Assembly: GCA_963706745.1 (NCBI GenBank)
Contig: CAVPMX010000004.1
Coordinates: 1,112,375-1,176,374 of the forward strand
DNA from: an uncultured Actinomycetes bacterium
Lineage (GTDB): Bacteria > Actinomycetota > Acidimicrobiia > IMCC26256 > PALSA-610
DNA: 64,000 bases
Direction: 5' to 3'
Shown here: positions 25,585-60,234 of the stretch, piece by piece
How the letters are laid out: each line of letters starts with the position of its first letter
How positions within the stretch are numbered: the first letter of the stretch is position 1
The notes under the pieces: generated by a model
Databases searched by the model: none
Told to the model about the DNA's origin: nothing
Seen by the model: the letters and a program-made list of their open reading frames with translations, nothing else
Program-made: the position numbers and the translations under genes

Positions 25585-26755
25585 ACGGAACGGGCGGCAC
25601 CGTCTTCGCCAAGAACTCCGACCGCCCCTTCGACGAGCGCCAGGTGCTCGCCGTAGCTCAGCCTCGGCGGCCGGCCGGAGAGCTGCTCCGGACCCAGTAC
25701 ATCGAGATCGCCGACGCCCCGCCGCACGCGCTGATCGGGTCCCAGCCCACGTGGCTGTGGGGGTTCGAGCACGGCGTGAACGAGCACCGTCTGGCCATCG
25801 GCAACGAGACCGTGTGGACCACGCGAGGACCCGAACGGCCTGCCGCCCGCCCTGATCGGCATGGACCTGGTGCGACTCGGTCTCGAGAGGTCCCGCTCGG
25901 CCGACGACGCCCTCGAGGTGATCACCTCGCTGATCGAGGCGCACGGGCAAGGTGGATCGGCGTGGGAGAGCGCCGACATGCCGTACTTCTCCTCCTTCCT
26001 GCTGGCCGACCCTCGCGGCGGATGGGTGATCGAGACGAGCAACCGCACGTGGGTCGCCCGCCCCGTGGAGGGTGGAGCAGCGATCTCGAACCGGGTCTCG
26101 ATGAGCACCGACTGGACACGTTCCTCGGCCGACGTACCCGACGGCACCGACTTCGACGATCTGCGCGACCCCAGCGCTCCGACCGCCTTCGCCGACCTGC
26201 GCCTCGACGCCACACGCGCGGCCGTCGAACAGGGTGCTGCAGCCTTGGGCCCGCGTGAGGTCGCGGCGACGCTGCGCCACCATGGCTCCCGCGCATGGGG
26301 CGCGCCCGGTGCCGACGCGTCCGACTGCAGCCCACCACCCGAGTCCGTCGCAGAGGACTGGACGGGCGTCACCGTCTGCATGCACGTCCGCGACTACATC
26401 GCCACGACGTCGTCGATGATCTGCGACCTCCGTGCGGATCCGGAAGCTCCGCTGCGGCATCTGGGTCGCCCTCGGCAGCCCGTGCGTCAGCGTCTACGTC
26501 CCGGTCTTCTTCGACGCCGTACCCGGTGAGCTCTCCGACCCTGCACAGTGGGAGCGCATCCGCCGACTGCGCGACCGCGTCGAGGCCGACGGCTCCGCGC
26601 TCGCCGAGGTGAGGAGCGTCCTGGCTCCGGTGGAGGCCGATCTGTGGGAGGAGGCCGACGCGCTGGCCGACTCGGGCGACCCGGCAGCCCTGAAGGAGTA
26701 CGCCGAGCGCGCGTGGGCCCCCGTCGACTCCGCGTTGACCGCCCTCGCCACCTGA
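25563..26755 (+). CDS. Secernin/peptidase C69-like Ntn hydrolase (frameshifted)
   Basis: MCDT N-terminal Cys, FAKNSDRP, WLWGFEHGVNEH, MDLVRLGLER, VCMH. Confidence 0.85.
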
Positions 26756-26816
26756 CCCCTCGTTCTTGCGTCACTTTCTCGCGTCTGTCGCGAGAAAGTG
26801 ACGCAAGAACGAGGGG
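26756..26816. repeat. REP-like palindrome copy 1 (perfect 28-bp stem, 5-nt loop) between convergent genes
   Basis: CCCCTCGTTCTTGCGTCACTTTCTCGCG-TCTGT-CGCGAGAAAGTGACGCAAGAACGAGGGG. Confidence 0.92.
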
Positions 26817-26829
26817 TGGGGGCCCGGGA

Positions 26830-46798: not shown

Positions 46799-48285
46799 AT
46801 GGACCTGACACTCGGCTTCCGTGAGCTGCTCGACGCGCTTCCCGACGCCATCGTCATCTCGTCGCCCGAGGGGTGCATCCTGCACGCGAACCGGCGCGCC
46901 GCCGAGCTCACCGGGTTCGCCGCCGCCGATCTCGTCGGACGCCCGGTCGAGGACCTGGTGCCGGAGCGGATGCGCGACACACACCTGCACCGCCGGTCGC
47001 TCTCGGGTGGCCGACCGGCCGCATCCCGGGCCATGGACGCCGGCATCGACTTCGTTCTGCTGCGGGCCGATGGGCGCGAAGTGCCCGTGGACATAGCGCT
47101 GAGCACGCTGAAGACCCCGGACGCCTCCTACGTCCTCAGCTGCCTCCGCGACGTCACCGACCGACACGAGACCGCGGCGAGGCTCCGCGCCGCCGTCGAG
47201 GTCAACGACGCGCTCCTCGCCGGGCAGGACTCCGACGACATCCTGCGGCTCGTCTGCGCCCGCCGCGCGAGCTGGTCCACGCCGATCTCGCGACCATCGC
47301 CGCACCGACCGAGGGCAATGAAGCGCTGACGATCCGCGTCGCCGTGGGTCGCTACGCCGACCGGGTCGAGGGCATGGTCTTCTCGTACGAGCAGTCGATC
47401 TCTGGAACCGTCATCCGCCGCGGCAAGGCCGAGGTGGTCGAGGACGCCGCCGCCGATGACCGCGTCTACCAGCCCGTCGTGGCAGTCGGCGAGATCGGTC
47501 CGGCGATCATCGTTCCACTTGCGGTCCGCGGCAGCGCGTTCGCGACGATCCTCGTCGCCAATGCTCGTGGGGGCCAGGCCTTCGACAAGCGCGAGCTGGA
47601 GCTCGTCGAGATGTTTGCTGCCCAGGCAGCGGTCACGCTCGAGTACGCGAGGGCGCAGCAGGAGCTCAGGCGCCTGATGGTGTTCGAGGATCGGGAGAGG
47701 ATCGCGCGCGACCTGCACGACACCGTCATCCAGCGCGTCTTCGCGATCGGGATGTCCCTGCAGGCGGCCTCCCACCTGATGCCGCCCGAGCTGGCAGCTC
47801 GGATAGACGACGCCGTCGACGAGCTCGACACGACGATCAAGGAGATCCGCTCGACGATCTTCGCTCTCGAGACTGCTCGGCGCGGCGGCGAGGGTGTCCG
47901 CGCCGACGTGCTGGGCCTCATCGGCGAGGCGTCACGCGGCCTCGGCTACGAACCGCGGGTGATCTTCGAGGGTGCCATCGACTCCTTGCTCTCAGTGGAG
48001 GCCGGCGAGCACCTCCTGGCGTCGCTACGCGAGGCGATCTCCAACGTCGCGCGTCATGCGCGGGCGACGCGGGCGGAGATCAGCGTCACTACGAACGACG
48101 GGGAGCTGCACCTGAAGGTCTCGGACGACGGCGTGGGGACCCCCAACGAATCCACGCTCCGCGGGTTGGGCCTCCGCAACATGGCCGAACGCGCCCGCAG
48201 CCTGGGCGGGAGCCTCGAGATCTCCTCCCCGGCCCGCGGGGGCACCGTCCTCGACTGGCGCGTCCCGCTCGACCGGACCGGCTGA
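46799..48285 (+). CDS. PAS-GAF sensor histidine kinase, HisKA_3 (DosS/DosT-like); frameshift near 47262
   Basis: PAS (LLDALPDAI...N..A..LTG), GAF, DRERIARDLHDTVIQR, REAISNVARHA, DDGVG, GLGLRNM. Confidence 0.88.
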
Positions 48286-48413: not shown

Positions 48414-48854
48414 CTACTCGTCGCCTGCGAGGCCGGCCCGTCGAGGCCCGAGCACCCTCCAGCGGGCCTCGGCCGTCGTCAGCAGCACTCCGTCGGCATC
48501 GCGCAGCTCGGCCTCCACCCAGACAGAGGGCCTCTCGACCCTCGTCGCCCTCGCGACTGCGACGAGGGGCGCCTCCACCGGGGCCGGCCGCCGGTACCTC
48601 AGCGAGAGCTCGACGGTGACGATCGCCATCTCGAGGTCGGTGTCGTCGACGGCGGCGTGGACGGCGAAGCCCATGACCTCGTCGAGGACCGTCGCTTGGA
48701 TGCCGCCGTGTGCGATGCCGGGACCGCCCTGGAAGTGGGCCGACAGCTCGACGTCGGCGCCGACCCAGCCCTCGGCGCGCACCGTCGTTCGGACCTGCAG
48801 GCCGTGGGGGTTCCCAGGGCCGCACCCGAAGCAGGTGCTCACCGCCTTCTCCAT
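48414..48854 (-). CDS. PaaI family thioesterase
   Basis: CFGCGPGNPHGL, GIAHGGIQATVLDE. Confidence 0.88.
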   Translation of the reverse strand: MEKAVSTCFGCGPGNPHGLQVRTTVRAEGWVGADVELSAHFQGGPGIAHGGIQATVLDEVMGFAVHAAVDDTDLEMAIVTVELSLRYRRPAPVEAPLVAVARATRVERPSVWVEAELRDADGVLLTTAEARWRVLGPRRAGLAGDE

Positions 48855-49062
48855 GGCGGGGCAGAGTACCGACAGCCACGCGTGGCATCCGAGCCGTGGG
48901 ACGGGCGGACGACGACTCCCCGCCGGCGACTCCGCACCGGTGCGTGGACCGCATCCGGTTCCGTTCCGGGCCGCGAACCCAGAGGACCCCGCCCAGGAGC
49001 AATGCTTTGCCTCGACCGACTGCCTGGCGTACAACGGCGCTCGACACCGACAAGGGAGGACG

Positions 49063-50436
49063 ATGACCGACGTCTCCGCTCTGCTCGCCGGCACTGTGCC
49101 GGCCGGTCACCTGCTGATCGGCCCGCAAGTCTCGGACGACTACTCCCACGACGAGTGCCTGACGGCGGAGCCGCAGATGCCCGCAGCCGTCGTCTGCCCG
49201 GAGACCGCCGCCGAGGTCGCGGCGATCCTGCGGGTCGCGAGCGCGAACGGCCTGCCGGTCACCGCCCGAGGCAGCGGGACCGGGCTCTCCGGCGCCTGCA
49301 TCCCGCAACCGGGCGGAATCGTCCTGTCGCTCGAGCGAATGAACAGGATCCGCGAGATCGACACCCAGAACCACGTCGCCGTCGTCGAGCCCGCGGTCAC
49401 CCTCACCGACCTCGACGAGGCCACCTCGGCCGTCGGGCTCGTCTACCCCGTCTACCCGGGCGAGATGGGCGGGTCGCTCGGCGGCAACGTCGCCACCAAC
49501 GCCGGCGGGATGCGAGCCGTCAAGTACGGCGTGACACGACACCAGGTGCTCGGCCTCGAAGCGGTGCTCGCCAGCGGCGAGATCATCCGGACCGGGGGGA
49601 AGTACGTCAAGGCCACGAGCGGCTACGACCTCACGCAGCTGATAACCGGCTCAGAAGGCACGCTCGCCGTCGTCACAGAGGTGACCGTCAAGCTGTACCC
49701 GCGCCCCGAGCACCAGACCATGGTCGTCGCACCGTTTGCGAGCCTCGCCGACCTAACCGGGGCCGTACCGCGCATCGTCACCAGCGGCGTCGGACCACTC
49801 GTTCTCGAGTACGCCGAGATGGGTTCGCTGATCGCCATAACGGGCGAGGCGGGGATCGACCTCGGAATCCCCTCCGACGTGCGTGAACGCGCCTTCGGGT
49901 GCCTGCTCCTGGTCGTGGAGGGGCACATGGAGGACCGGGTCGAGGAAGACGTCGCCACCGCCTGCGAGCTGCTCTACGCGCTCGGAGCCATCGACGCCTA
50001 TGTCCTGCCCGGGCACGCCTCCGCCCAGGTGCTCGACGCCCGCGAGAAGGCGTTCCACTTCGCCAAGCGCGCCGGGGCGCACGACATCGTCGACGTCGTC
50101 GTGCCGAGGGCGTCGATAGCCCCGTACCTCGCGACCGTCGCCGACCTGGCCGCGCAGCACGGGGCCCTGGTGGCGGGCCTCGGCCACGCCGGTGACGGGA
50201 ACGTGCACCTGTCGGTCTTCCAGCCCGACGCCGAGCGCCGATCGAGGCTGATGCGCGGGATCTTCGAGGCGGGCCTCGCCCTCGGCGGGGCGATCTCCGC
50301 CGAGCACGGGATCGGCTCGGAGAAGCGCGGCTACTTCCTCGATCTGGAGGACCCCGTCAAGATCGACTTGATGCGGGGGATCAAGGCCGCATTCGACCCG
50401 AATGGCATCCTCAACCCCGGAACCCTCCTCGACTGA
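49063..50436 (+). CDS. FAD-binding oxidoreductase (GlcD/D-lactate dehydrogenase family)
   Basis: RGSGTGLSG, GGNVATNAGG, GSEGTL, GHAGDGNVH, SAEHGIG. Confidence 0.92.
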   Translation: MTDVSALLAGTVPAGHLLIGPQVSDDYSHDECLTAEPQMPAAVVCPETAAEVAAILRVASANGLPVTARGSGTGLSGACIPQPGGIVLSLERMNRIREIDTQNHVAVVEPAVTLTDLDEATSAVGLVYPVYPGEMGGSLGGNVATNAGGMRAVKYGVTRHQVLGLEAVLASGEIIRTGGKYVKATSGYDLTQLITGSEGTLAVVTEVTVKLYPRPEHQTMVVAPFASLADLTGAVPRIVTSGVGPLVLEYAEMGSLIAITGEAGIDLGIPSDVRERAFGCLLLVVEGHMEDRVEEDVATACELLYALGAIDAYVLPGHASAQVLDAREKAFHFAKRAGAHDIVDVVVPRASIAPYLATVADLAAQHGALVAGLGHAGDGNVHLSVFQPDAERRSRLMRGIFEAGLALGGAISAEHGIGSEKRGYFLDLEDPVKIDLMRGIKAAFDPNGILNPGTLLD

Positions 50437-50453
50437 CCCCCCTCGCTCCACCA

Positions 50454-50514
50454 CCCCCCGTTCTTGCGTCACTTGCTCGCAACTATCGCGAGTAAGTGAC
50501 GCAAGAACGGGGGG
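50454..50514. repeat. REP-like palindrome copy 2
   Basis: CGTTCTTGCGTCACTTGCTCGC-AACTATC-GCGAGTAAGTGACGCAAGAACG. Confidence 0.9.
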
Positions 50515-50606
50515 GTGGGGTTGGGATTCCTAAACCGGGATATCCTGACTAGAGTTGCGAGCAACTGGTATCCCGCACTCGCGCGCAGTCACCCGAGGGG
50601 GCAGAC

Positions 50607-53445
50607 ATGGGCATCGCAGGCCGCACCACCGACGCTTTCAGGGGATCCGAGGATCAGTACCGGACCCGGTGGTCGTGGGACAGCGTCACGTGGGGCACCC
50701 ACTGCGTCGACTGCTACCCGGGGAACTGCCCGTACAAGGTCTTCGTGCGCGACGGCAAGGTCGTGCGCGAAGAGGTGGCAGGCAGCCACCGCACCATCGA
50801 GGAAGGCGTCCCCGACTTCAACCCGATGGGGTGCAACAAGGGCGCGTCGTGGAGCCAGAGCCTCTACGACGGTGACCGCCTCGTCTACCCGCTCAAGCGC
50901 GCAGGCGAGCGCGGCGAAGGCAAGTGGGAGCGCATCACCTGGGACGATGCCTGCACGATCATCGCCGACGCGATGCTCGACGCGATCGAGGCGGGTGGCC
51001 CCGAGGACATCGCGAGGGAGGGCACCCCCGAGATCGCAACCGTGGCACCCACCGAGAGGTTCTTCGGGACGATCGGCGGCCGCGCGATGGATCTGCACGC
51101 GTCGTTCAACGACTTCTCGATCGGCCTGCACGAGACGTACGGCAAGTTCTGCCCGGTCTCCTCGGGCGACGACTGGTTCAAGTCGGAACTCATCCTCATC
51201 TGGCACATGAACCCCGCCTTCACCCGCATCCCCCTCTACCACTTCATGCTCGAAGCCCGATACCACGGCGCCGAAGTCGTCTCCATCTCCCCCGACCTCA
51301 ACGCATCACACATGCACGCCGACTACCACGTCCCCGTCCCATCGGGCAACGACGTCCCCTTCGGCCTCGCAATGGTCCAAGTCATCCTCGAAGAAGGACT
51401 CGAGGACAAGACCTTCATCCGCGAGCAGACCGACCTCCCGTGCCTCGTGCGCACCGACAACAACCGGTACCTACGCCAGACCGACCTCGAAGGCGACGGC
51501 CGCGAAGACCAGCTCTACCACTGGGACCCCACCACCGGCGCCCCCACGAAAGCCGACCGCGGCAACCTCCTCCTCCACGGACGCGAGATCGCCCTCGAAG
51601 GCACCTACAACGTCACACTCCACGACGGCACCAAGGTCGAGGTCGAACCCGTCCTCGCACGCCTACGTCGCATGCTCGACGAGCAGTACACCCCCGAGAC
51701 CCAACAGGCCACCACCAACATCCACCCCGACCTCGTGCGCACCATCGCCCGCAAAGCCGCCACCAAGAAGACCAACATCATGTTGGGCTGGAACTCCTGC
51801 AAGTACTACCACGGCGACCTAATCGAACGAACCATGTGCCTCCTCCTCGCCGTCACCGGCAACTGGGGCAAGTTCGGCACCGGCATCCGCTCCTGGACCG
51901 CCGGCGTCATCGACGGCCAGGGAATGCTCATGGCGAAGCAGAGCCCCGGCGTGGAGGCCACCGAGCAGATCCTCACCATGCACGACACGATGGTCGACGC
52001 AATGCGTGCCGACGACCCGTCGCTCACATCGAAGGAGCTCGCGGCCAAGGAGATGCAGATCCGCATCCGCCAGGCCTCGGTGGAGTTCGCCAAGACAGAC
52101 GACGAGAACGACCCGTACGGGCGTCGCGGGTCGACGCCGTCGGTCGAGGCGTTCTGGTGGTACTGGCAGGCCGGCTACAAGGAGCGGTGGAACGAGAAGG
52201 ACTGGGGCGACAACACACTCCCCCGCAGCTTCGACGAGTACTTCGACGAGGCCCTCGCTGTCCGGGTGGTGGGCGGGTGTCGACGGACCGCGCCCCGACA
52301 CGCCGCCGAAGGTGCTGATCGAGTGCGGCGGCAACATGCTGCGCCGCACCCGCGGCGGCAAGACCGCTCTCCTCGACACGCTCTGGCCGAAGCTGAACCT
52401 GATCGTCTCGATCGACTTCCGCATCAACGCAACCGGGCTCTGGTCAGACATCCTGCTGCCCGCAGCCCAGCACTACGAGAAGCTCGCCTACCACATCCCC
52501 ACCCCGCACCAGATGATGATGACCTTCTCCGACAAGGCCGCCGAGCCCGCCGGAGAGGCCCTGCCCGAATGGGAGATCTACCAGCGCATCCTCAAGAAGT
52601 TCGAGGCGCGCGCGAAGGCACGCGGCATCGAGAACTACCAGACGCGCGACGGCGTACCGTTCAACACGCAGGACGCCTGGGACCGCTACACGATGGGCGG
52701 GAACATCGTCACCGAGGAGCAGATGGCCGACGAGATCGCCCGCGACGCGGCGTACATCGGCGTCATCCCCGAGGGAACGACCCTGCAGACGATGCGCGAG
52801 GAAGGCCATGTGCGCATCACAGGCTGGGGGATGTCGTTCTTCAGCCTCGCGCAGGCATCACCCGTCGAGAAGGAGCGCACGCACGCTCCGTTCCGCAACC
52901 ACGTCGAGATCGGCGACCCGTTCCCGACCTACTCGCGGCGCGCCCAGTTCTACATCGACCACCCGTGGTGGCTCGAGGCCGGCGAAGAGCTACCCGTCCA
53001 CAAGTCGAACCCGAAAGCCGGAGGCGACCACCCCCTACGCATGACCTCCGGGCACAACCGCTGGTCGATCCACTCGATGAACATGGCGAACCCCGTCCTG
53101 CTACAGACCCACCGCGGCGAACCCGCCGTCGAGATCAACCCCGACGACGCAGCAGCCCGCGGAGTGGCCGACGACGACCCGATCCGCATCTGGAACGACA
53201 TCTCGTCGTTCGTCTGCCGGGCGAAGATCGTCCAAGGCGTCATGCCCGGCCAGATCATCTCCTACAACGGATGGGACCCGCACCAGTACCAGGACAACAT
53301 GGGAGCCAACGAGATCGAGGCCGGCATGGTCAAGTGGATCGCCTTCGCCGGCGGCTACGGCCACATCAACTACACCTCAGCGGAGTGGCAGCCGATCCCC
53401 ACCGACCGCGGCGTCCCCTGCAACTTCGAGAAGGTCACCGCCTAA
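50607..53445 (+). CDS. DMSO reductase family type II molybdoenzyme alpha subunit (EbdA/S25dA-like), copy 1; +1 frameshift near 52259
   Basis: GTHCVDCYPGNC...PMGCNKG FS0 motif, SFNDFS (likely Mo-ligand Asp), DILLPAAQHYEK, HNRWSIHS. Confidence 0.85.
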
Positions 53446-53458
53446 CCCCCTCCCCGCT

Positions 53459-53509
53459 CGTTCTTGCGTCACTTACTCGCAACTATCGCGAGTAAGTGAC
53501 GCAAGAACG
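53459..53509. repeat. REP-like palindrome copy 3
   Basis: CGTTCTTGCGTCACTTACTCGC-AACTATC-GCGAGTAAGTGACGCAAGAACG. Confidence 0.9.
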
Positions 53510-53606
53510 GGGAGGTGGGGTTGGGATTCCTAAACCGGGATATCCTGACTAGAGTTGCGAGCAACTGGCAACCCGCACTCGCGCGCAGTCACCCGAGGGG
53601 GCAGAC

Positions 53607-56459
53607 ATGGGCATCGCAGGCCGCACCACCGACGCTTTCAGGGGATCCGAGGATCAGTACCGGACCCGGTGGTCGTGGGACAGCGTCACGTGGGGCACCC
53701 ACTGCGTCGACTGCTACCCGGGGAACTGCCCGTACAAGGTCTTCGTGCGCGACGGCAAGGTCGTGCGCGAAGAGGTGGCAGGCAGCCACCGCACCATCGA
53801 GGAAGGCGTCCCCGACTTCAACCCGATGGGGTGCAACAAGGGCGCCTCGTGGAGCCAGAGCCTCTACGACGGTGACCGCCTCGTCTACCCGCTCAAGCGC
53901 GCAGGCGAGCGCGGCGAAGGCAAGTGGGAGCGCATCACCTGGGACGATGCCTGCACGATCATCGCCGACGCGATGCTCGATGTGATCGAGGCGGGTGGCC
54001 CCGAGGACATCGCCCACGAGGGCACCCCAGAAGTCGCGACGGTGATGCCGACGGGCCGCTTCTTCGGTGCGATCGGCGGCCGCTCGATGGATCTGCACGC
54101 GTCGTTCAACGACTTCTCGATCGGCCTGCACGAGACGTACGGCAAGTTCTGCCCGGTCTCCTCGGGCGACGACTGGTTCAAGTCGGAACTCATCCTCATC
54201 TGGCACATGAACCCCGCCTTCACCCGCATCCCCCTCTACCACTTCATGCTCGAAGCCCGATACCACGGCGCCGAAGTCGTCTCCATCTCCCCCGACCTCA
54301 ACGCATCACACATGCACGCCGACTACCACGTCCCCGTCCCATCGGGCAACGACGTCCCCTTCGGCCTCGCAATGGTCCAAGTCATCCTCGAAGAAGGACT
54401 CGAGGACAAGACCTTCATCCGCGAGCAGACCGACCTCCCGTGCCTCGTGCGCACCGACAACAACCGGTACCTACGCCAGACCGACCTCGAAGGCGACGGC
54501 CGCGAAGACCAGCTCTACCACTGGGACCCCACCACCGGCGCCCCCACGAAAGCCGACCGCGGCAACCTCCTCCTCCACGGACGCGAGATCGCCCTCGAAG
54601 GCACCTACAACGTCACACTCCACGACGGCACCAAGGTCGAGGTCGAACCCGTCCTCGCACGCCTACGTCGCATGCTCGACGAGCAGTACACCCCCGAGAC
54701 CCAACAGGCCACCACCAACATCCACCCCGACCTCGTGCGCACCATCGCCCGCAAAGCCGCCACCAAGAAGACCAACATCATGTTGGGCTGGAACTCCTGC
54801 AAGTACTACCACGGCGACCTAATCGAACGAACCATGTGCCTCCTCCTCGCCGTCACCGGCAACTGGGGCAAGTTCGGCACCGGCATCCGCTCCTGGACCG
54901 CCGGCACGATGGACGGCTCCGGGATGCTCTCGATGAAGAGCGGGCCCGGAGTGGAGGCCACCGAGCAGGTCATCGCTGCCCGCGACGGCGCCATCGCGAT
55001 GATTCAGGCGGCCGACCCGTCGGTCACCTCCGAGGAGCTCGCAGCCAAGGAGCTCCAGTGGCGCATGCGCGAGGCGGGAGGCCGCGCAGGGATGATGGCC
55101 GGTGCCAGTGCCGCGAAAGACGGCAAGGGGCACCGAGGGCGCCACGACAGGTTCAATGTGGAGGCGTTCTGGTGGTACTGGCAGGCCGGCTACAAGGAGC
55201 GGTGGAACAAGAAGGACTGGGGCGACAACACACTCCCCCGCAGCTTCGACGAGTACTTCGACGAGGCCCTCGCGTCCGGGTGGTGGGACGGCGTGGCTGG
55301 GCCGACGCCCGAGTACCCGCCCAGGATGCTGATCGAGTGCGGCGGCAACATGCTGCGCCGCACCCGCGGCGGCAAGACCGCTCTCCTCGACACGCTCTGG
55401 CCGAAGCTGAACCTGATCGTCTCGATCGACTTCCGCATCAACGCAACCGGGCTCTGGTCAGACATCCTGCTGCCCGCAGCCCAGCACTACGAGAAGCTCG
55501 CCTACCACATCCCCACCCCGCACCAGATGATGATGACCTTCTCCGACAAGGCCGCCGAGCCCGCCGGAGAGGCCCTGCCCGAATGGGAGATCTACCAGCG
55601 CATCCTCAAGAAGTTCTCCGAGCGCGCCAAGGCCCGCGGCATCGAGACCTACAAGGGCCGTGACGGCACGGAGTACAACACGCAGGATGCCTGGGAGCGC
55701 TACACGCTGGGCGGGAACATCGTCACCGAGGAGCAGATGGCCGACGAGATCGCCCGCGACGCGGCGTACATCGGCGTCATCCCCGGCGACACGACCCTGC
55801 AGACGATGCGCGAGAAGGGCCATGTGCGCATCACAGGCTGGGGGATGTCGTTCTTCAGCCTCGCGCAGGCATCACCCGTCGAGAAGGAGCGCACACACAC
55901 CCCGTTCCGCAACCACATCGAGATCGGCGACCCGTACCCCACCTACTCGCGGCGCGCCCAGTTCTACATCGACCACCCGTGGTGGCTCGAGGCCGGCGAA
56001 GAGCTACCCGTCCACAAGCCGAACCCGAAAGCCGGAGGCGACCACCCCCTACGCATGACCTCCGGGCACAACCGCTGGTCGATCCACTCGATGAACATGG
56101 CGAACCCGGTCCTGCTCCAGACCCACCGCGGCGAACCCGCCGTCGAGATCAACCCCGACGACGCCGCAGCCCGCGGAGTGGCCGACGACGACCCGATCCG
56201 CATCTGGAACGACATCTCGTCGTTCGTCTGCCGGGCGAAGATCGTCCAAGGCGTCATGCCCGGCCAGATCATCTCCTACAACGGATGGGACCCGCACCAG
56301 TACCAGGACAACATGGGAGCCAACGAGATCGAGGCCGGCATGGTCAAGTGGATCGCCTTCGCCGGCGGCTACGGCCACATCAACTACACGATGGCCGAGT
56401 GGCAGCCGATCCCCACCGACCGCGGCGTCCCCTGCAACTTCGAGAAGGTCACCACGTAA
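53607..56459 (+). CDS. DMSO reductase family type II molybdoenzyme alpha subunit (EbdA/S25dA-like), copy 2, intact 950 aa
   Basis: Same motifs as copy 1; no twin-arginine leader visible. Confidence 0.88.
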   Translation: MGIAGRTTDAFRGSEDQYRTRWSWDSVTWGTHCVDCYPGNCPYKVFVRDGKVVREEVAGSHRTIEEGVPDFNPMGCNKGASWSQSLYDGDRLVYPLKRAGERGEGKWERITWDDACTIIADAMLDVIEAGGPEDIAHEGTPEVATVMPTGRFFGAIGGRSMDLHASFNDFSIGLHETYGKFCPVSSGDDWFKSELILIWHMNPAFTRIPLYHFMLEARYHGAEVVSISPDLNASHMHADYHVPVPSGNDVPFGLAMVQVILEEGLEDKTFIREQTDLPCLVRTDNNRYLRQTDLEGDGREDQLYHWDPTTGAPTKADRGNLLLHGREIALEGTYNVTLHDGTKVEVEPVLARLRRMLDEQYTPETQQATTNIHPDLVRTIARKAATKKTNIMLGWNSCKYYHGDLIERTMCLLLAVTGNWGKFGTGIRSWTAGTMDGSGMLSMKSGPGVEATEQVIAARDGAIAMIQAADPSVTSEELAAKELQWRMREAGGRAGMMAGASAAKDGKGHRGRHDRFNVEAFWWYWQAGYKERWNKKDWGDNTLPRSFDEYFDEALASGWWDGVAGPTPEYPPRMLIECGGNMLRRTRGGKTALLDTLWPKLNLIVSIDFRINATGLWSDILLPAAQHYEKLAYHIPTPHQMMMTFSDKAAEPAGEALPEWEIYQRILKKFSERAKARGIETYKGRDGTEYNTQDAWERYTLGGNIVTEEQMADEIARDAAYIGVIPGDTTLQTMREKGHVRITGWGMSFFSLAQASPVEKERTHTPFRNHIEIGDPYPTYSRRAQFYIDHPWWLEAGEELPVHKPNPKAGGDHPLRMTSGHNRWSIHSMNMANPVLLQTHRGEPAVEINPDDAAARGVADDDPIRIWNDISSFVCRAKIVQGVMPGQIISYNGWDPHQYQDNMGANEIEAGMVKWIAFAGGYGHINYTMAEWQPIPTDRGVPCNFEKVTT

Positions 56460-56467
56460 CCCCCCCT

Positions 56468-56518
56468 CGTTCTTGCGTCACTTACTCGCAACTATCGCGA
56501 GTAAGTGACGCAAGAACG
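56468..56518. repeat. REP-like palindrome copy 4
   Basis: Core identical to copy 3; 8 nt after the TAA stop, between convergent genes. Confidence 0.9.
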
Positions 56519-56529
56519 GGTCAGGCGGG

Positions 56530-56967
56530 TCAGTGGGAGCGCAGCCTGACGGCGACCGCCGCCACGGCCACCACGCCCCAGGCGATCGCGAGCACTGTCA
56601 GGGTCGCGGTGCCGTAGTCGAGTGGTTGGATGGTGGGATTCCGAGCACGCGCGGCGGTGTTGCGCAGCGGCGCTGCGGCGACGATCAGGACCACGCCGCT
56701 CGCGATCAACGCCGCCTGGAGAGCGGGCCGCACCCGCCGCGGCGCCACACGCTCGACGACCACCCCGACGAGCACGAGCAGCGGGACGAACAGCAGGTCG
56801 TGCAGGAGCGCGGCACCCGCGAGAAAGATCGCGAAGTTGCCGCGGCGGGCCAGGTCGGGGGTCGCGTCGAAAAAGAGCCTGCCACCCCAGGCCATGAGCG
56901 ACCCTCCGACCGCAGCGCAGACCCAGAAACGAGCTCCGTGCTCGCTCTGCCCACCCTCGCTCTTCAC
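56530..56967 (-). CDS. Hypothetical membrane protein (~4 TM)
   Basis: LLHDLLFVP, NPTIQPLDY; GTG overlaps the upstream stop. Confidence 0.7.
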   Translation of the reverse strand: MKSEGGQSEHGARFWVCAAVGGSLMAWGGRLFFDATPDLARRGNFAIFLAGAALLHDLLFVPLLVLVGVVVERVAPRRVRPALQAALIASGVVLIVAAAPLRNTAARARNPTIQPLDYGTATLTVLAIAWGVVAVAAVAVRLRSH

Positions 56968-58118
56968 GCGGTCACCTCCACTCGCGTCACCCACTTGGTC
57001 TGATGCACACCGGGACGGTTCGGGCCGATCAGCCTCACCGGGAATCCGTGATCCGCAGCGAGCACCTCGCCGTTCACCCTCAGTGCGAGGAGGGTTCCAC
57101 GATCGCGCGCCTGGCCGGCATTGACAGGCGACGTCCTCTGCCGCGGATTGTCGTGCATCGCGTACACGATCGCCTCGGAGCCTCTGTCGGCTCCCGCAAG
57201 ATCGAACAGGTCGCGCAGCGGGACTCCGGTCCAGCGTTGTGAGGTGCTCCATCCCTCGACGCACGCGATCGGGAGCGTCTCGGTCCTCTGCGGCAGCGCC
57301 TCCAGATCCGCGTACGTGAGCTCCAGGGGCTGCGTCACACCCGGGCCGTCGACGTGCAGCCGCCACGTCGCCAAGTCGACATCGTCGAGGCCGACAGAGC
57401 CGGCAGTCCGGTTGACGGGGAAGCCCTGAGGGCCGACGTCGGGGCGCCGGGGCGCGAGCAGCGCGATCTTGCGGAGCGGCTCGAACGCCTGGCCGACGGT
57501 GACGAGTGCCAGGAGCCCAGCGGAACCGAAGACGGTAGCCAGAAACCCCCGGCGGTCGAGGCCACCGTCGCTCGACGAGCCGGTCTGCTCATCGACCGTC
57601 TGACCGACTGCCGCCCGGATCGCCGTCCACTTCGCTCCCACGTGAACGACCATCCCTCCGATCACGATCCACGCCGCGGCGTAGTGACCGCTTCGGAACG
57701 AGAACGTCCAGGGCCGCCACAAGTTCACGTTCGCGAGCCCGGTGAACAGGAGCAGGATCCCACCGCCGACGAGCGGCAGCAGGGCCAGTCGTTCGACCGC
57801 GTGCGCGATCGAGCGCACCGGCGGCCACTCGAACAGGTTCGGGTATACCGCCCACATCTTGGCCAGGAGCAACGGAATCGACGCGATCCCCATCGTCACG
57901 TGCAGACCCTGTGTGAACCGGTAGAGACCTGCAGGGCGCGCCGGCCAGGAGAACCAGCCGGGCGGATTCTGCGAGACGTGTGAGAGCACTCCCGTTGCGA
58001 AGCACACCGTGAAGGCGACTCCGAGTGCGACTCCGAGAACAGCGGCCACCCGCTCGTCGTGCAGGACACTGCGGAACTCGGGGCGCGTCGATGCGATCCG
58101 TCGGAGACGACTGCTCAT
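56964..58118 (-). CDS. Membrane-anchored sulfite-oxidase-family (MsrP-like) molybdopterin oxidoreductase
   Basis: N-terminal TM segments with His, then LPIACVEGWS, WTGVPL, DHGFPVRLI, TKWV. Confidence 0.85.
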   Translation of the reverse strand: MSSRLRRIASTRPEFRSVLHDERVAAVLGVALGVAFTVCFATGVLSHVSQNPPGWFSWPARPAGLYRFTQGLHVTMGIASIPLLLAKMWAVYPNLFEWPPVRSIAHAVERLALLPLVGGGILLLFTGLANVNLWRPWTFSFRSGHYAAAWIVIGGMVVHVGAKWTAIRAAVGQTVDEQTGSSSDGGLDRRGFLATVFGSAGLLALVTVGQAFEPLRKIALLAPRRPDVGPQGFPVNRTAGSVGLDDVDLATWRLHVDGPGVTQPLELTYADLEALPQRTETLPIACVEGWSTSQRWTGVPLRDLFDLAGADRGSEAIVYAMHDNPRQRTSPVNAGQARDRGTLLALRVNGEVLAADHGFPVRLIGPNRPGVHQTKWVTRVEVTA

Positions 58119-58717
58119 CGGCGCACCGCTTCGAGTCGGGCGAACCAACGATCTCCACAGCTCCACTGCTCGCAGCACTCGAAGCCCGCTGACGCCGAGA
58201 CGCCGTCGAGGTCGTCGGCCGCGACCGAGGTCCAGGGGAACCACGGTCCCGCGTCACCGTCGACGATCACCCGCGCCCGGTCGTCGAACCCTGCCGACCC
58301 GGGCGCCTCGGTCTCCACGAGTACTCGCCCACCCGGAGCGAGAAGACGCCGCACGCGCTGGAGCAGCACGACCGGATCCCCGCCGATTCCGAGATTGCCG
58401 TCGAGTAGCAGCGCTGTCTCCCACCTTCCCGCTCCGGGGATGCGATCGAAGACCGAGCGTTGGAGCACGGTCGCTCCGCGCTCGCGCGCCACACGAAGCG
58501 CCGACGGCGTGATGTCGATCCCCAGGGCCACGAATCCGCGCTCCGACAGGGCGAGCGTGTGGCGAGCCGGCCCGCAGCCGATGTCGAGCACCGCGGGAAC
58601 GGCGTGTGCCAGAACGGTGTGGTCGGCCTCACCGAGCGGACCGGTCCAGCGACAGATCGAGGCTGATTCCCGCCGTTCGAGCTGAAGGCTCCCGCGCACC
58701 ACATCCTCACTCGGCAC
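58115..58717 (-). CDS. Class I SAM-dependent methyltransferase
   Basis: VLDIGCGPARH, LGIDIT, LLDGNLGIGGDP; start approximate. Confidence 0.85.
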   Translation of the reverse strand: MPSEDVVRGSLQLERRESASICRWTGPLGEADHTVLAHAVPAVLDIGCGPARHTLALSERGFVALGIDITPSALRVARERGATVLQRSVFDRIPGAGRWETALLLDGNLGIGGDPVVLLQRVRRLLAPGGRVLVETEAPGSAGFDDRARVIVDGDAGPWFPWTSVAADDLDGVSASAGFECCEQWSCGDRWFARLEAVRR

Positions 58718-59366
58718 GGTTCGCCACCTCCACGGGTAGACACGATGCGATGCGAGCGACCTCCGCCGCGAATCGCGTTCCAGGCACCTCACGCGCGACA
58801 GCGAGTGCATCTCGCCACTCGTCCACGTCGAGGAGCGGCTCGAGCACACCGACTACGCCGGCGCGCTCCCTGAGGCGCTCGAGCTGCAGCATGCCGGTGG
58901 ATCTGGTGCTCATCGGCACGCCGAGGAAGAGCAGCGGGTCGCTCCGCCTGACACCGACGGCCCAGAACCCCCCGTCGTCGGCCGGTCCGAAGACTGCGGC
59001 GCAGCCGCTCTCGAGCAGGCCGAGCGCCCGCACGAGCTCGTCGCTGCCGATCTGCGGAGTATCCATGCCGACGAGGACGGCTGGTCCCCCGACGTCATCG
59101 AATGCCGCTGCGAGACGCTCGTCGAGCCCGACACCCCGCTGGCCGATCACCTCGACCGGGTAGCCGTCGAGCCATTCACCCGCGGGACCGTCGAGAGCGA
59201 GCACGTGTCGCCGCGCCGGCGTTGCGACGACGGCGTCAAGCGTGTCGAGGAGCGCTCCGAGGGCGATGCGAGCAGCCTCTGCCGGCGTGCACGGAGGGCA
59301 GAGTCGCGTCTTGACGCGCCCGGGCTCGGGCGACTTGGCCATCACGATCAACGCGGCCTCACTCAT
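58707..59366 (-). CDS. DUF2064/TIGR04282-type glycosyltransferase-fold protein
   Basis: IVMAKSPEPGRVKTRL, QRGVGLDERL, GMDTPQ, GPADDGGFW, DVD. Confidence 0.88.
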   Translation of the reverse strand: MSEAALIVMAKSPEPGRVKTRLCPPCTPAEAARIALGALLDTLDAVVATPARRHVLALDGPAGEWLDGYPVEVIGQRGVGLDERLAAAFDDVGGPAVLVGMDTPQIGSDELVRALGLLESGCAAVFGPADDGGFWAVGVRRSDPLLFLGVPMSTRSTGMLQLERLRERAGVVGVLEPLLDVDEWRDALAVAREVPGTRFAAEVARIASCLPVEVANRAE

Positions 59367-59552
59367 GTCTCCCGCTCCTGGCCCTGCGGGCCGGGCCGCT
59401 CGGGCCACGCTCCGCCACGCGAGGTGGCGGCCATCGTGCGCAGGGCGGCCTCACTCATGTCTCCCGCTCCTGGCCCTGCGGGCCGGGCCGCTCGGGCCAC
59501 GCTCCGCCGCGCGAGGTGGCGGCCATCGTGCGCAGGGCGGCCTCACTCATGT
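59353..59552 (-). repeat. MIRU-like 92-bp tandem repeat (2 units + 16 bp), each unit encoding a 31-aa ORF
   Basis: gcggcctcactcatgt at 59353, 59445 and 59537; minus-strand ATGs at 59550, 59458 and 59366 linked by ATGA overlaps. Confidence 0.88.
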
Positions 59553-59568
59553 TGCTCGCTCGCGGGGC

Positions 59569-60234
59569 TCATCGCCTGGCCGAGCGCGAACGGTCGAGGG
59601 AGACGCGAGCCATGTCGCGACACGTGCGAGCGGTTCCCAGCAGCGTCCCGGTGACCTTCGACTGCCCCACGCGCGGACGATAGGAGACCTCGACCTCGTC
59701 GACCCTCCACCCGGCCGTCGATGCGGCCAACACCATCTCCAGCGGCCAGCCGAAGCCGCGATCGACGAGCCCCAGTGCCACCAGGGCTTCGCGCCGCGCC
59801 GCGCGCATCGGCCCGAGATCCCTGAGAGGAAGCCCCGTCCAACGTCGCAGTGCCAGTGCGATCACTGCGTTGGCCGCACGCGCGTGCACCGGCCACGCTC
59901 CATCCGTCGGCCTCCGGGCACCAAGCACCAGATCGGCTCTGCCCTCCGTGACCGGGTCCGCCACCCTGGGCAGCTCGCGTCCGTCGAACGACGCGTCGCA
60001 GTCCATGAAGCAGACGACGCTCGCCCTCGCCGCGCAGAGACCCGCCCAGCAGGCGGCTCCGAAGCCGCGCTTCGCCTCATAGACGACCTCGGCGCCCAGA
60101 GAGCGTGCGATGTCGCCGGAGCCGTCGGACGAGCCGTTGTCGACGACGATCGGCGCGTATCCCTCCGGCAGCGATTCGAGCACCCCGGGCAGGGCACCGG
60201 CCTCGTCGAGCACGGGGAGGATCACGTCGGGCAT
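59569..60234 (-). CDS. Glycosyltransferase family 2 (polyprenol-phosphate glycosyltransferase-like)
   Basis: VILPVLDEA, VVDNGSSDG, FMDCDAS, DLVLGAR, SKVTGT. Confidence 0.9.
   Translation of the reverse strand: MPDVILPVLDEAGALPGVLESLPEGYAPIVVDNGSSDGSGDIARSLGAEVVYEAKRGFGAACWAGLCAARASVVCFMDCDASFDGRELPRVADPVTEGRADLVLGARRPTDGAWPVHARAANAVIALALRRWTGLPLRDLGPMRAARREALVALGLVDRGFGWPLEMVLAASTAGWRVDEVEVSYRPRVGQSKVTGTLLGTARTCRDMARVSLDRSRSARR

Follow-up and report, generated by a model that had tools for sequence, protein, structure and literature searches.

Tandem EbdA-like alpha-subunit genes with alternating identical blocks and divergent patches in an Acidimicrobiia genome

How do two neighbouring genes come to be identical, synonymous sites included, over hundreds of nucleotides and deeply divergent in the segments between? 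The question is raised by a tandem pair, copies A and B, in the window (the whole stretch of 64,000 nt analysed), for which a sequence-only reading had proposed recurrent gene conversion. The answer favoured here, with a probability of about 65%, is segmental gene conversion between two old tandem paralogs. The source is a metagenome-assembled genome (MAG) of 9 contigs, 79.65% complete with 2.43% contamination; the block identity and the tandem arrangement rest on this MAG, which makes it their sole source.

The tandem locus and its enzymes

Both copies follow a FAD-linked oxidase gene and are bordered by REP-like palindromes, in the following order:

48616..50436, + strand, FAD-linked oxidase gene upstream of the copies (Pfam FAD_binding_4 and FAD-oxidase_C)
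50450-50511 (also given as 50459..50511), no strand, REP-like palindrome copy 1, left edge of repeat unit 1
50512..50606, + strand, 5' region of copy A, 93 of 95 nt in common with 53512-53606
50607-53445, + strand, copy A, EbdA-like type II DMSO-reductase alpha subunit with a broken frame
50607..52258, + strand, first part of copy A, with the FS0 motif, the Asp ligand, the Lys450 equivalent and patches p1 and p2 (Pfam Molybdopterin)
52261..53445, + strand, second part of copy A, with patches p3 and p4 and the MGD-binding C-terminal domain (Pfam Molydop_binding)
53450-53511 (also 53459..53511), no strand, REP-like palindrome copy 2, end of unit 1 and start of unit 2
53607..56459, + strand, copy B, intact 950-aa EbdA-like alpha subunit (ORF, Pfam and NCBIfam matches)
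56459-56520 (also 56468..56520), no strand, REP-like palindrome copy 3, right edge of unit 2

The palindromes are perfect long hairpins with folding energies of -60 to -73 kcal/mol (91-nt stretches) and are found at about 29 loci across the genome. The 5' regions of A and B have no further occurrence elsewhere in the genome and show 4 differences in 148 columns, and the hairpin plus promoter segment is 97.3% identical between the copies. The junctions are distinct, namely unique sequence-palindrome-A, A-palindrome-B, and B-palindrome-unique sequence. The arrangement palindrome-5' region-gene-palindrome-5' region-gene-palindrome is the product expected of unequal recombination, and the tandem unit may have arisen by such an exchange between two dispersed REP-like palindromes flanking a single gene. 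The closest ortholog (L016/G031) lies at a syntenic locus, where a single alpha gene follows a FAD oxidase homolog that is 70% identical to the one found here. Within 50300-56800, a promoter scan returned no sigma-70-like site, a sigma-70 scan being uninformative for an actinobacterium, and terminator-like sites were in no excess over shuffles.

On the favoured reading, A and B are real tandem paralogs, coding for a cytoplasmic EbdA-like Mo-bis-MGD alpha subunit. B matches PF00384 (1.6e-34) and PF01568 (1.4e-17), and the two pieces of A likewise contain both domains. Scores of B against NCBIfam models lie below the cut-offs, with 834.6 bits for TIGR03479 (DMSO_red_II_alp; cut-off 984.75), the match beginning at profile position 40 of 913, and 690.1 bits for the EbdA equivalog NF042978 (cut-off 2000). 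The predicted model of B (pTM 0.84, mean pLDDT 79.2) retrieves with Foldseek 2ivf_A (E 4e-89, TM 0.90/0.94, rmsd 2.8 A, 36% identity), then PcrA and NarG.

The conserved Asp ligand of Mo in the type II family (EbdA Asp223; PMC8840923, available text) aligns with D169 of B and D170 of PcrA; 68 of 68 family sequences carry this Asp, as does A. The positions of EbdA Asp223, Lys450, and Trp481 are kept in B as D169, K399, and W430. The position of EbdA His192 is taken by Pro141, invariant in the family alignment, and a Pro at this place has been reported for AhyA sequences (PMC7803848, available text). The FS0 cluster motif consists of one His and three Cys (PMC8840923), and H32-C36-C41 of B aligns to the corresponding EbdA His/Cys segment, the ligand assignment being made from alignment alone; the family alignment shows no variation at C36, C41, and C76 and hardly any at H32. 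A Tat signal is absent, with no twin arginine in the first 30 residues of B, residue 4 of which aligns to EbdA 54, and with only 18 open codons upstream of the ATG. A and B probably encode catalytic subunits of a C-H hydroxylase that depends on water.

No beta, gamma, or delta gene adjoins A and B. Matches to TIGR03478 (beta), TIGR03477 (gamma), and TIGR03482 (delta) are located at 3-4 other loci of the genome, those to TIGR03478 and TIGR03482 all below the cut-offs, and one TIGR03477 locus attains 170.5 against a cut-off of 169.85 only on summing two neighbouring pieces. The genome holds at least 12 alpha loci versus about 3-4 beta, gamma, and delta loci; these other loci may supply the partners of A and B.

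Blocks, patches, and conflicting ancestry

A MAFFT alignment of 50401-53600 with 53401-56600 partitions the two copies as follows:

51085..51905 = 54085-54905, + strand, identical block 1, 821 nt with 0 differences (dS 0 over 189.7 synonymous sites)
52313..52602 = 55327-55616, + strand, identical block 3, 290 nt with 0 differences
51014..51084 versus 54014-54084, + strand, patch p1, 70.4% nucleotide identity, dS 0.61
51906..52145 versus 54906-55160, + strand, patch p2, 59.6% identity with 15 gap columns, dS 0.73
52259..52312 versus 55273-55326, + strand, patch p3, 66.7% identity, dS 0.81
52603..52693 versus 55617-55707, + strand, patch p4, 76.9% identity, dS 0.34
52259..52259, + strand, single additional base of copy A, left border of p3 (A/B alignment)

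The sequence-only reading had matched 51085-51905 to 54085-54905 and about 52313-52600 to its counterpart, and both proved to be exact runs, of 821 nt and of 290 nt (52313-52602). The four divergent patches that it had described are borne out at 59.6-76.9% identity, its 15-nt length difference being the 15 gap columns of p2; the peptide difference IAREGTPEIATVAPTERF versus IAHEGTPEVATVMPTGRF is indeed found in A versus B, as is TSAEW versus TMAEW (residue 929, S/M). Further exact runs cover 50572-50845 (274 nt) and 53152-53375 (224 nt), and an amino-acid difference at 50981-50983 was grouped with p1. The patches represent 471 of the 3068 repeat-unit columns (15%), yet they hold 163 of the 200 differing columns, as well as 73 of the 83 amino-acid differences. 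The C-terminal 752 columns are 96.9% identical, with 23 scattered single differences.

Synonymous divergence follows the same partition. Between A and B, dS is 0 in blocks 161-433, 519-555, and 576-666 (about 272 synonymous sites altogether). It is 0.012 over the N-terminal part and 0.04-0.17 over the C-terminal part, rising to 0.34-0.81 in the patches. The blocks are therefore not merely slow-evolving sequence, and the patches not merely fast-evolving protein. With all patches pooled, the A-B dS of 0.61 is as deep as the block dS to the nearest ortholog L016 (0.56 from A, 0.55 from B), which argues that A and B are old copies. In column shuffles of the Sawyer type, the longest A=B run spans 408 of 1542 polymorphic sites for a shuffle maximum of 130, and 0 of 10000 shuffles reach 408; with third positions alone, the run is 223 versus a maximum of 106 (0 of 10000).

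Trees built on 25 rows disagree on the ancestry of the copies. The block tree places (A,B) as sister to L016 (SH-aLRT 98), whereas in the patch tree B joins L014 and L015 with a support of 100/98. Forcing A and B together in the patches costs 16.2 lnL units (AU p=0.007, for a clade named after the first tree had been viewed). The signal is mixed by patch: A is ortholog-like in p1 (97% to L016) and p3, and B is nearer the orthologs in p2 and p4. The dS contrast and the conflicting trees make recombinational homogenisation between the copies the best explanation, and the different tract ages (dS 0, 0.012, and 0.04-0.17) fit repeated events; this part of the earlier proposal, recurrent gene conversion, is supported.

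Aligned to EbdA, the patches correspond to residues 186-214 (p1, including His192), 484-546 (p2), about 583-603 (p3), and 695-729 (p4). In the B model, p2 is predicted as three helices and a loop, with pLDDT <50 at residues 492-511. By alignment, the end of p1 lies 3-4 residues short of where the PcrA gate residues F164/Y165 would be, and p2 begins 4 residues past the EbdA Trp481 position; the PcrA gate residue W461 would fall at about B 434, a 3-residue extrapolation beyond the aligned stretch, and B residues 432-550 (most of p2) are without aligned counterpart in PcrA. The patches had been taken for substrate-funnel segments, which is supported only in part, p1 and the start of p2 abutting active-site residue positions in the EbdA/PcrA alignment. 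The mosaic had also been called a way to shuffle specificity, and this is unsupported as stated: dN/dS in the patches is 0.26-0.76, exceeding 1 in none, and p1-p4 are the most variable segments of the family. With dN/dS below 1 in every patch, there is no sign of selection for diversity.

The earlier reading had not noticed that the frame of A is broken. At 52259, the A-to-B offset passes from 3015 to 3014, i.e. one surplus base in A (MAFFT). A is read in frame 3 as far as 52256, then in frame 1 beginning with 52261, and tblastn of B matches its residues 1-639 in frame 3 of the first part and its residues 557-949 in frame 1 of the second part (93.6% identity). Owing to this switch, the 962-aa ORF at 50607-53495 is a mixture of two frames. 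Read across the break, A retains 190 of 190 invariant family residues. The break is either recent or an assembly error, and it is located exactly at a block/patch border; a related contig of public run X6 has one base missing at 52256.

Among the other alpha paralogs of the genome, none of which exceeds 56% protein identity to A/B, a second mosaic pair was found (genome G000, C4:5983-10964 versus C8:126325-131297). Its gamma-beta part is identical over a run of 1036 nt, and its alpha part contains divergent windows, the lowest-identity ones corresponding to B residues 126-175, 301-325, 426-450, 676-725, and 901-950 and overlapping p1, p2, and p4. The C6b/C7a pair, 92.8% identical with a longest run of 190 nt and roughly even divergence, was not counted as a mosaic. 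Frame breaks affect A, C4:6299-9062, C8:126642-129396, and C7:431000-433235, thus including other near-identical alpha pairs, and eight further alpha paralog loci have no frame break. With the break of A at a border and further breaks in other pairs, the pattern has the appearance expected of consensus errors in repeats.

Gene conversion and its rivals

Relatives and public sequencing runs provide an outside view of the locus. Among 47 genome_contigs loci, the best reaches 80%. Four of 41 related genomes have a match at E<=1e-150, and matches in G001, a genome of the same genus, do not exceed 53%. The best match among 5.8 billion proteins reaches 80% amino-acid identity, that among shorter fragments 76%, and that among JGI metagenome contigs 77%. 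No relative from these collections is close enough to polarise the patches. Near-identical long matches among the fetched loci are nearly all one locus from different samples; the sole pair from the same MAG, L023/L027, is 90.3% identical over 8863 nt. The sequencing run richest in the words of the stretch contains a share of 0.13, and no run reaches one half. Contigs of four runs from four studies break at the block borders: X1 covers 51096-51901, X4 covers 51087-51901, X7 begins at 51085, and X6 ends at 51901. At 90-94% identity, these runs include B-type p2/p3 (X1, X4, X6) and B-type p1 (X6), and X6 also includes an A-type p2 start, p3, and p4. The classic comparison of paralogs with orthologs in the converted tracts comes down to the pieces listed, in which the block has about 96% identity to this genome, versus 100% between A and B here, and the depths are sums over organisms. 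The ratio of shared-block to B-patch depth is about 1.6-2.0 in X4 and 1.2-1.5 in X1, where the reads may reflect two alleles in two strains. Regions without coverage in the public runs were left out of the evidence.

An unlikely alternative history is that the gene was duplicated in tandem recently and that the patches were then imported from a diverged homolog, residing in another organism or being a paralog lost or hidden in the unassembled 20% of this 79.65% complete genome. The palindrome-bordered unit with its near-identical 5' region does resemble a young duplication, the closest ortholog is single-copy at its syntenic locus, and the B patches group with the L014/L015 lineage and not with A. 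Such a history would, however, call for a donor of only 60-77% identity and for no fewer than four short replacements made separately (71, 240-255, 54, and 91 nt), and its variant with one long import and later back-conversion of the blocks amounts to gene conversion again. Both copies, moreover, hold odd versions, B in p1 and p3 and A in p2 and p4, and the dS of 0.04-0.17 in the C-terminal third means that, even outside the patches, the copies are not young throughout. A donor was sought without success in the searched collections and in the genome, where blastn of the 8 patch versions against the 9 contigs matched only themselves or each other. Quite improbable as well is an artefact of assembly or polishing, by which two strain alleles of one gene would have been placed in tandem or two diverged copies equalised by mis-assigned reads. 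The origin in a metagenome, the position of the frame break of A, the clustering of frame breaks in alpha paralogs with a near-identical partner, and the X1 depths (14.1 for the shared block versus 9.5 for B-type p2), which fit a strain mixture as well as two copies, all speak for it. Yet the eight unbroken alpha loci indicate that indel errors are not general, the junctions of A and B are distinct, and polishing of this assembly cannot cause short-read contigs of four other studies to end at the same borders with both patch types. Single-base differences between A and B are also kept in the N-terminal part and in the C-terminal third, the latter implying that assembly did not homogenise the copies wholesale.

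A third alternative, fast protein evolution of the patches by positive selection after a recent duplication, without gene conversion, is hardly credible. It would accommodate the concentration of amino-acid differences in the patches (73 of 83) and the coincidence of these with the most variable segments of the family, but protein selection does not raise dS, which is 0.34-0.81 in the patches versus 0 in the blocks; besides, dN/dS is 0.26-0.76 and an A+B clade is rejected in the patches. Positive selection alone is rejected on dS.

Segmental gene conversion between the old paralogs A and B is thus retained as the main reading. The copies would be old, their synonymous distance in the four patches equalling that to the nearest ortholog, which belongs to another bacterial family. 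Between the patches, non-reciprocal homologous recombination would have overwritten one copy with the other. This overwriting would be very recent in the 5' two-thirds (dS 0-0.012) and older in the 3' third (dS 0.04-0.17). Converted tracts appear to stop at the hypervariable segments of the family, either because an identity of only 60-77% between the copies would make heteroduplex formation fail there or because selection would act against converted patch variants if the patches shape the substrate pocket. Divergence-limited conversion without selection accounts for the pattern equally well.

A more speculative extension, to which a low probability is given, assigns a function to the mosaic. 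Conversion might keep the scaffold that binds the cofactor and docks beta/gamma identical, allowing many alpha subunits to share few partner sets. A fixed set of four or five hypervariable cassettes, surrounding the entrance to the active site, would be exempt and carry substrate specificity. That the same cassettes differ in two independent pairs of this genome would then suggest a built-in diversification of oxygen-independent hydroxylases in Acidimicrobiia, with the frame-broken A as a possible silent cassette donor.

Significance and comparison with known systems

EbdA-like Mo enzymes, which use water to hydroxylate unactivated C-H bonds, are of interest in the degradation of steroids and hydrocarbons as well as in biocatalysis. 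If the four patches set substrate choice, the locus would be a natural swap experiment between enzymes otherwise identical. For annotation, the identity of the A/B paralogs is uninformative on their age, and near-identical paralogs in long-read metagenome genomes call for read-level checks.

The S25DH1-8 enzymes of Sterolibacterium denitrificans offer a similar gene content, with many EbdA-like alpha paralogs and fewer beta/gamma sets. Eight alpha genes are described, alpha2-4 being 72-82% identical to alpha1, and the beta3gamma3 and beta4gamma4 subunits are 99% identical (PMC6016249, PMC6153880, available text). Paralogous alpha subunits of S25DH differ in substrate, which is the one studied case, and alpha1 carries a Tat signal (PMC6016249, available text), unlike A and B. 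The host is a betaproteobacterium, whereas that of A and B is an Acidimicrobiia MAG. Neither mosaic identity nor gene conversion is described for S25DH in the available text of PMC6016249 and PMC6153880, and the word 'recombination' has 0 occurrences in that of PMC6016249.

EbdA (PDB 2IVF) is both the best sequence match of B among solved structures (E 1.7e-195) and its best fold match. B differs from it in having Pro141 at the His192 position, no adjoining partner gene, and no Tat signal. PcrA (PDB 4YDD, 5CH7, 5E7O) shares the fold of B (TM 0.83/0.88), and its gate positions fall at the edges of p1 and p2; PcrA reduces an oxyanion, however, and is no hydroxylase, and its gate residues are not conserved in B.

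Among bacteria, tufA/tufB is a textbook case of concerted evolution. Interlocus gene conversion generally resembles the present locus in that stretches of identity alternate with diverged ones and paralogs are more alike than their age predicts, features used to define gene conversion between duplicates (PMC2720389, PMC3924837, available text). That literature models selection maintaining escape from conversion, whereas here selection is one of two possible causes of the escape; the present case differs further in concerning a catabolic molybdoenzyme family and in that two independent pairs escape at matching segments. No report of gene conversion in the EbdA-like molybdenum enzyme family was found in the literature searched. 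The best reading is that of a known process, segmental concerted evolution, newly seen in this enzyme family.

Tandem copies and their surroundings

One gene, coding for an EbdA-like type II DMSO-reductase alpha subunit, is present in two tandem copies (A and B) in this region of the window, with the following features:

26738-26821, palindrome, the same dispersed REP-like element
48616-50436, FAD-linked oxidase gene, upstream of A
50459-50511, perfect palindrome of ~53 nt, ahead of A
50607-53445, copy A, with a 5' region as in B; the end is that of the right frame
53459-53511, perfect palindrome of ~53 nt, ahead of B
53607-56459, copy B, intact ORF of 950 codons
56468-56520, palindrome, after B
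56964-58244, opposite strand, sulfite-oxidase-type molybdenum domain protein, downstream of B

Genes for beta, gamma or delta subunits were not found adjacent to A or B. The alternation of palindromes and genes would be the expected product of unequal recombination between two flanking palindromes. The 95-nt 5' region before each copy occurs nowhere else in the genome. The REP-like palindrome (stem of ~21 bp, loop of 7 nt) is dispersed over ~29 genome loci, several of them adjoining other alpha paralogs, and it may serve as terminator and recombination site. On contig C8 of the source genome, it stands at 118319, 14 nt past a paralog end at 118305, and several others directly follow alpha paralogs.

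The nearest ortholog locus (L016) also has an FAD oxidase upstream but a single alpha gene. The match to this oxidase (L101, G031 C1:832257-834025) is split in two and includes an in-frame TGA, and the long-contig MAG that carries it may have indel errors or a broken oxidase gene. In a genome of the same genus (77% complete), queries from the A/B locus found neither alpha nor FAD oxidase gene. Elsewhere in the window, a 92-nt repeat stands in three tandem copies at 59337-59582, and 23016-23747 (minus strand) weakly matches residues 28-271 of B (25% identity), which indicates another, distant putative molybdopterin oxidoreductase.

Copy A carries one extra base at 52259, where the copy-to-copy offset passes from 3015 to 3014 in the nucleotide alignment; a tblastn of B against the window puts residues 1-639 of A in frame 3, and 557-949 in frame 1. 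The 962-aa ORF at 50607-53495 is therefore a wrong-frame run-on. Read through the break, A keeps 190/190 invariant residues of a 68-sequence family alignment; thus, the break is of very recent date or results from faulty assembly. The public run X6 has a related contig that covers 52172-52725 at 92% identity and is one base short at 52256. A PAS domain ORF (46799-47329) and a GAF-HisKA_3-HATPase ORF (46873-48285) overlap in different frames, as if a frame change between ~47170 and 47269 had split a single sensor kinase gene; this is a second candidate indel less than 6 kb from A.

Identical blocks and divergent patches

Comparison of the repeat units (50459-53511 and 53459-56520) gave 200 differing columns out of 3068. 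The sequence-only reading had matched 51085-51905 to 54085-54905 by eye, and this identity is exact over 821 nt; its second match likewise holds (52313-52602 and 55327-55616, 290 nt identical). Further identical runs cover 50572-50845 (274 nt) and 53152-53375 (224 nt). The divergent patches that it had described between such blocks are real, as 163 of the 200 differences fall within the four patches p1-p4, together with 73 of the 83 amino-acid differences, whereas the C-terminal 752 columns hold 23 scattered differences. The dS comparison that it had proposed separates blocks (0) from patches (0.34-0.81).

Divergence between A and B by segment (Nei-Gojobori estimates)
Blocks: dS 0 (no synonymous difference at 272 synonymous sites)
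N-terminal 124 codons: dS 0.012
p1, 51014-51084: 70.4% identity, dS 0.61, dN/dS 0.26
p2, 51906-52145: 59.6% identity, 15 gap columns, dS 0.73, dN/dS 0.76
p3, 52259-52312: 66.7% identity, dS 0.81, dN/dS 0.34
p4, 52603-52693: 76.9% identity, dS 0.34, dN/dS 0.61
C-terminal third: dS 0.04-0.17

The mosaic is neither chance nor mere constraint. Indeed, across a codon alignment of 13 sequences, the longest stretch on which A and B agree spans 408 of 1542 polymorphic sites for a maximum of 130 in 10000 shuffles, and third positions only give 223 against 106 (10000 shuffles). Nowhere is the family alignment more variable than in the patches, whose mean column entropy is 1.2-1.9 bits versus 0.85-0.95 in blocks. 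Over all patches, the dS between A and B (0.61) equals the block dS separating either copy from L016 (0.55-0.56), their nearest ortholog, from another family of the same order.

Blocks and patches have different histories. For the trees, A and B were combined with 23 orthologs (65-80% identity) drawn from 47 loci, giving 25 protein rows. In the block tree, A and B together are sister to L016 (SH-aLRT 98), whereas the concatenated patches (165 columns) place B with the homologs L014 and L015 (ultrafast bootstrap 100, SH-aLRT 98). A patch tree constrained to keep A and B together is worse by 16.2 log-likelihood units (AU p=0.007), for a clade chosen after the first tree was seen. The MAGs of L014 and L015 each have a second alpha gene of the same group, so two coexisting lineages per genome are not unusual. 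Patch by patch, the signal is mixed: the ortholog-like copy is A in p1 (97% to L016) and p3 (89% to the protein P0022), while B is nearer to orthologs in p2 and p4.

Origin of the mosaic

Segmental concerted evolution of two old tandem paralogs is the preferred reading, with a probability of roughly 0.65. The two copies would convert each other repeatedly wherever similar enough, latest in the 5' two-thirds, and conversion tracts would end at hypervariable segments, where either heteroduplex extension would be blocked at 60-77% identity or converted pockets would be removed by selection, neither being favoured by the present data. A young duplication followed by imported patches appears doubtful, as it still requires conversion or four short imports; a search of all patches against the contigs of the source genome found no donor. 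Positive selection alone, a very improbable explanation, is contradicted by dS.

An assembly or polishing artefact is unlikely, since single differences between the copies are preserved and contigs from other studies argue against it. No run holds the entire stretch (highest share of words 0.13), but four runs, each from a different study (bioreactor and groundwater metagenomes), have contigs that match it at 90-96% identity. Those on the 821-nt block coincide with it almost exactly and stop at its borders (X1 51096-51901, X4 51087-51901, X7 from 51085, X6 to 51901), as does an X7 contig at 54713-54904. Among the pieces listed, beyond which there are 262 more, B-type p2 and p3 occur in X1, X4 and X6, and X6 holds B-type p1 together with A-type p2 start, p3 and p4; its patch pieces have similar depths (5.0-6.3). 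Shared blocks are 1.6-2.0x as deep as B-specific patches in X4, but only 1.2-1.5x in X1. These contigs speak for the existence of both patch types, and of a block common to two contexts, outside the source assembly, two copies per genome being unproven there.

This genome has a second mosaic pair, formed by an alpha-gamma-beta operon (C4:5983-10964) and its copy (C8:126325-131297). They share 92.9% identity, and over gamma-beta 1036 nt are identical in one run. The lowest windows of this pair in B numbering, 126-175 (77%), 301-325 (69%), 426-450 (75%, followed by a stretch without alignment to B), 676-725 (77-79%) and 901-950 (72-80%), coincide with p1, p2, p4 and the differences between A and B at the C-terminus. 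In the MAG, the two operons sit close to contig ends and their alpha genes both have frame breaks; strain mixing may be involved. A further alpha 5' end follows the operon copy at C8 131303-131623, so this unit may be tandem too.

Gene-conversion mosaics between paralogs are already well known, as abstracts of two reviews attest (PMC2720389, PMC3924837). A full-text literature search found none described, nor concerted evolution, for ethylbenzene dehydrogenase, steroid C25 dehydrogenase, the DMSO reductase family or molybdoenzymes. The main value of A and B is as a natural patch-swap pair in an enzyme class of biocatalytic interest.

Enzyme identity and relation to known systems

Copy B includes Molybdopterin and Molydop_binding domains and scores below cut-off against both TIGR03479 (type II DMSO reductase alpha; 834.6 bits for 984.75) and the EbdA equivalog model (690 for 2000). 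Its nearest solved relative is ethylbenzene dehydrogenase EbdA (E 1.7e-195), and its AlphaFold2 model (pTM 0.84, mean pLDDT 79.2) has 2ivf_A as top fold match (TM 0.90/0.94), followed by PcrA and NarG. The EbdA residues D223 (the Asp ligand), Lys450 and Trp481 are conserved as D169, K399 and W430, all family-invariant, whereas the His192 position is Pro141 in B, a proline also found there in AhyA sequences described in part of PMC7803848.

By alignment to EbdA and PcrA, p1 (EbdA 186-214) includes the His192 position; its end lies 9 residues short of the Asp ligand and 3-4 short of the positions of F164/Y165, which with W461 are gate residues of PcrA according to a figure legend in PMC6650914. 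The patch p2 (EbdA 484-546) begins 4 residues after Trp481, with W461 approximately at its start by a 3-residue extrapolation past the aligned stretch; its remainder, modelled as three helices and a low-confidence loop (residues 492-511, pLDDT <50), is without aligned PcrA counterpart. The other two correspond to EbdA ~583-603 (p3) and 695-729 (p4).

EbdA and S25DH carry a Tat signal, unlike B, in which residue 4 already pairs with residue 54 of EbdA in the alignment. Since this signal is also lacking in A and the aligned orthologs, the alpha subunits of A/B and of the EbdA-like clade of Acidimicrobiia and Chloroflexi MAGs are predicted from sequence to be cytoplasmic, in contrast to EbdA and S25DH.

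The source genome, an Acidimicrobiia MAG (9 contigs, 3.45 Mb, 79.65% complete), holds at least 12 alpha-like loci versus ~3-4 each of beta, gamma and delta. At one alpha-like locus (C4:933391-936111), matches hop among three frames more than 10 times in 2.7 kb, owing either to pseudogene decay or to poor assembly. A homogenised scaffold could plausibly keep many alpha subunits compatible with few beta/gamma/delta sets. This complement of many alpha paralogs and fewer beta/gamma sets resembles that of Sterolibacterium denitrificans, for which sections of PMC6016249 and PMC6153880 report eight alpha paralogs with fewer beta/gamma sets and differing substrates.
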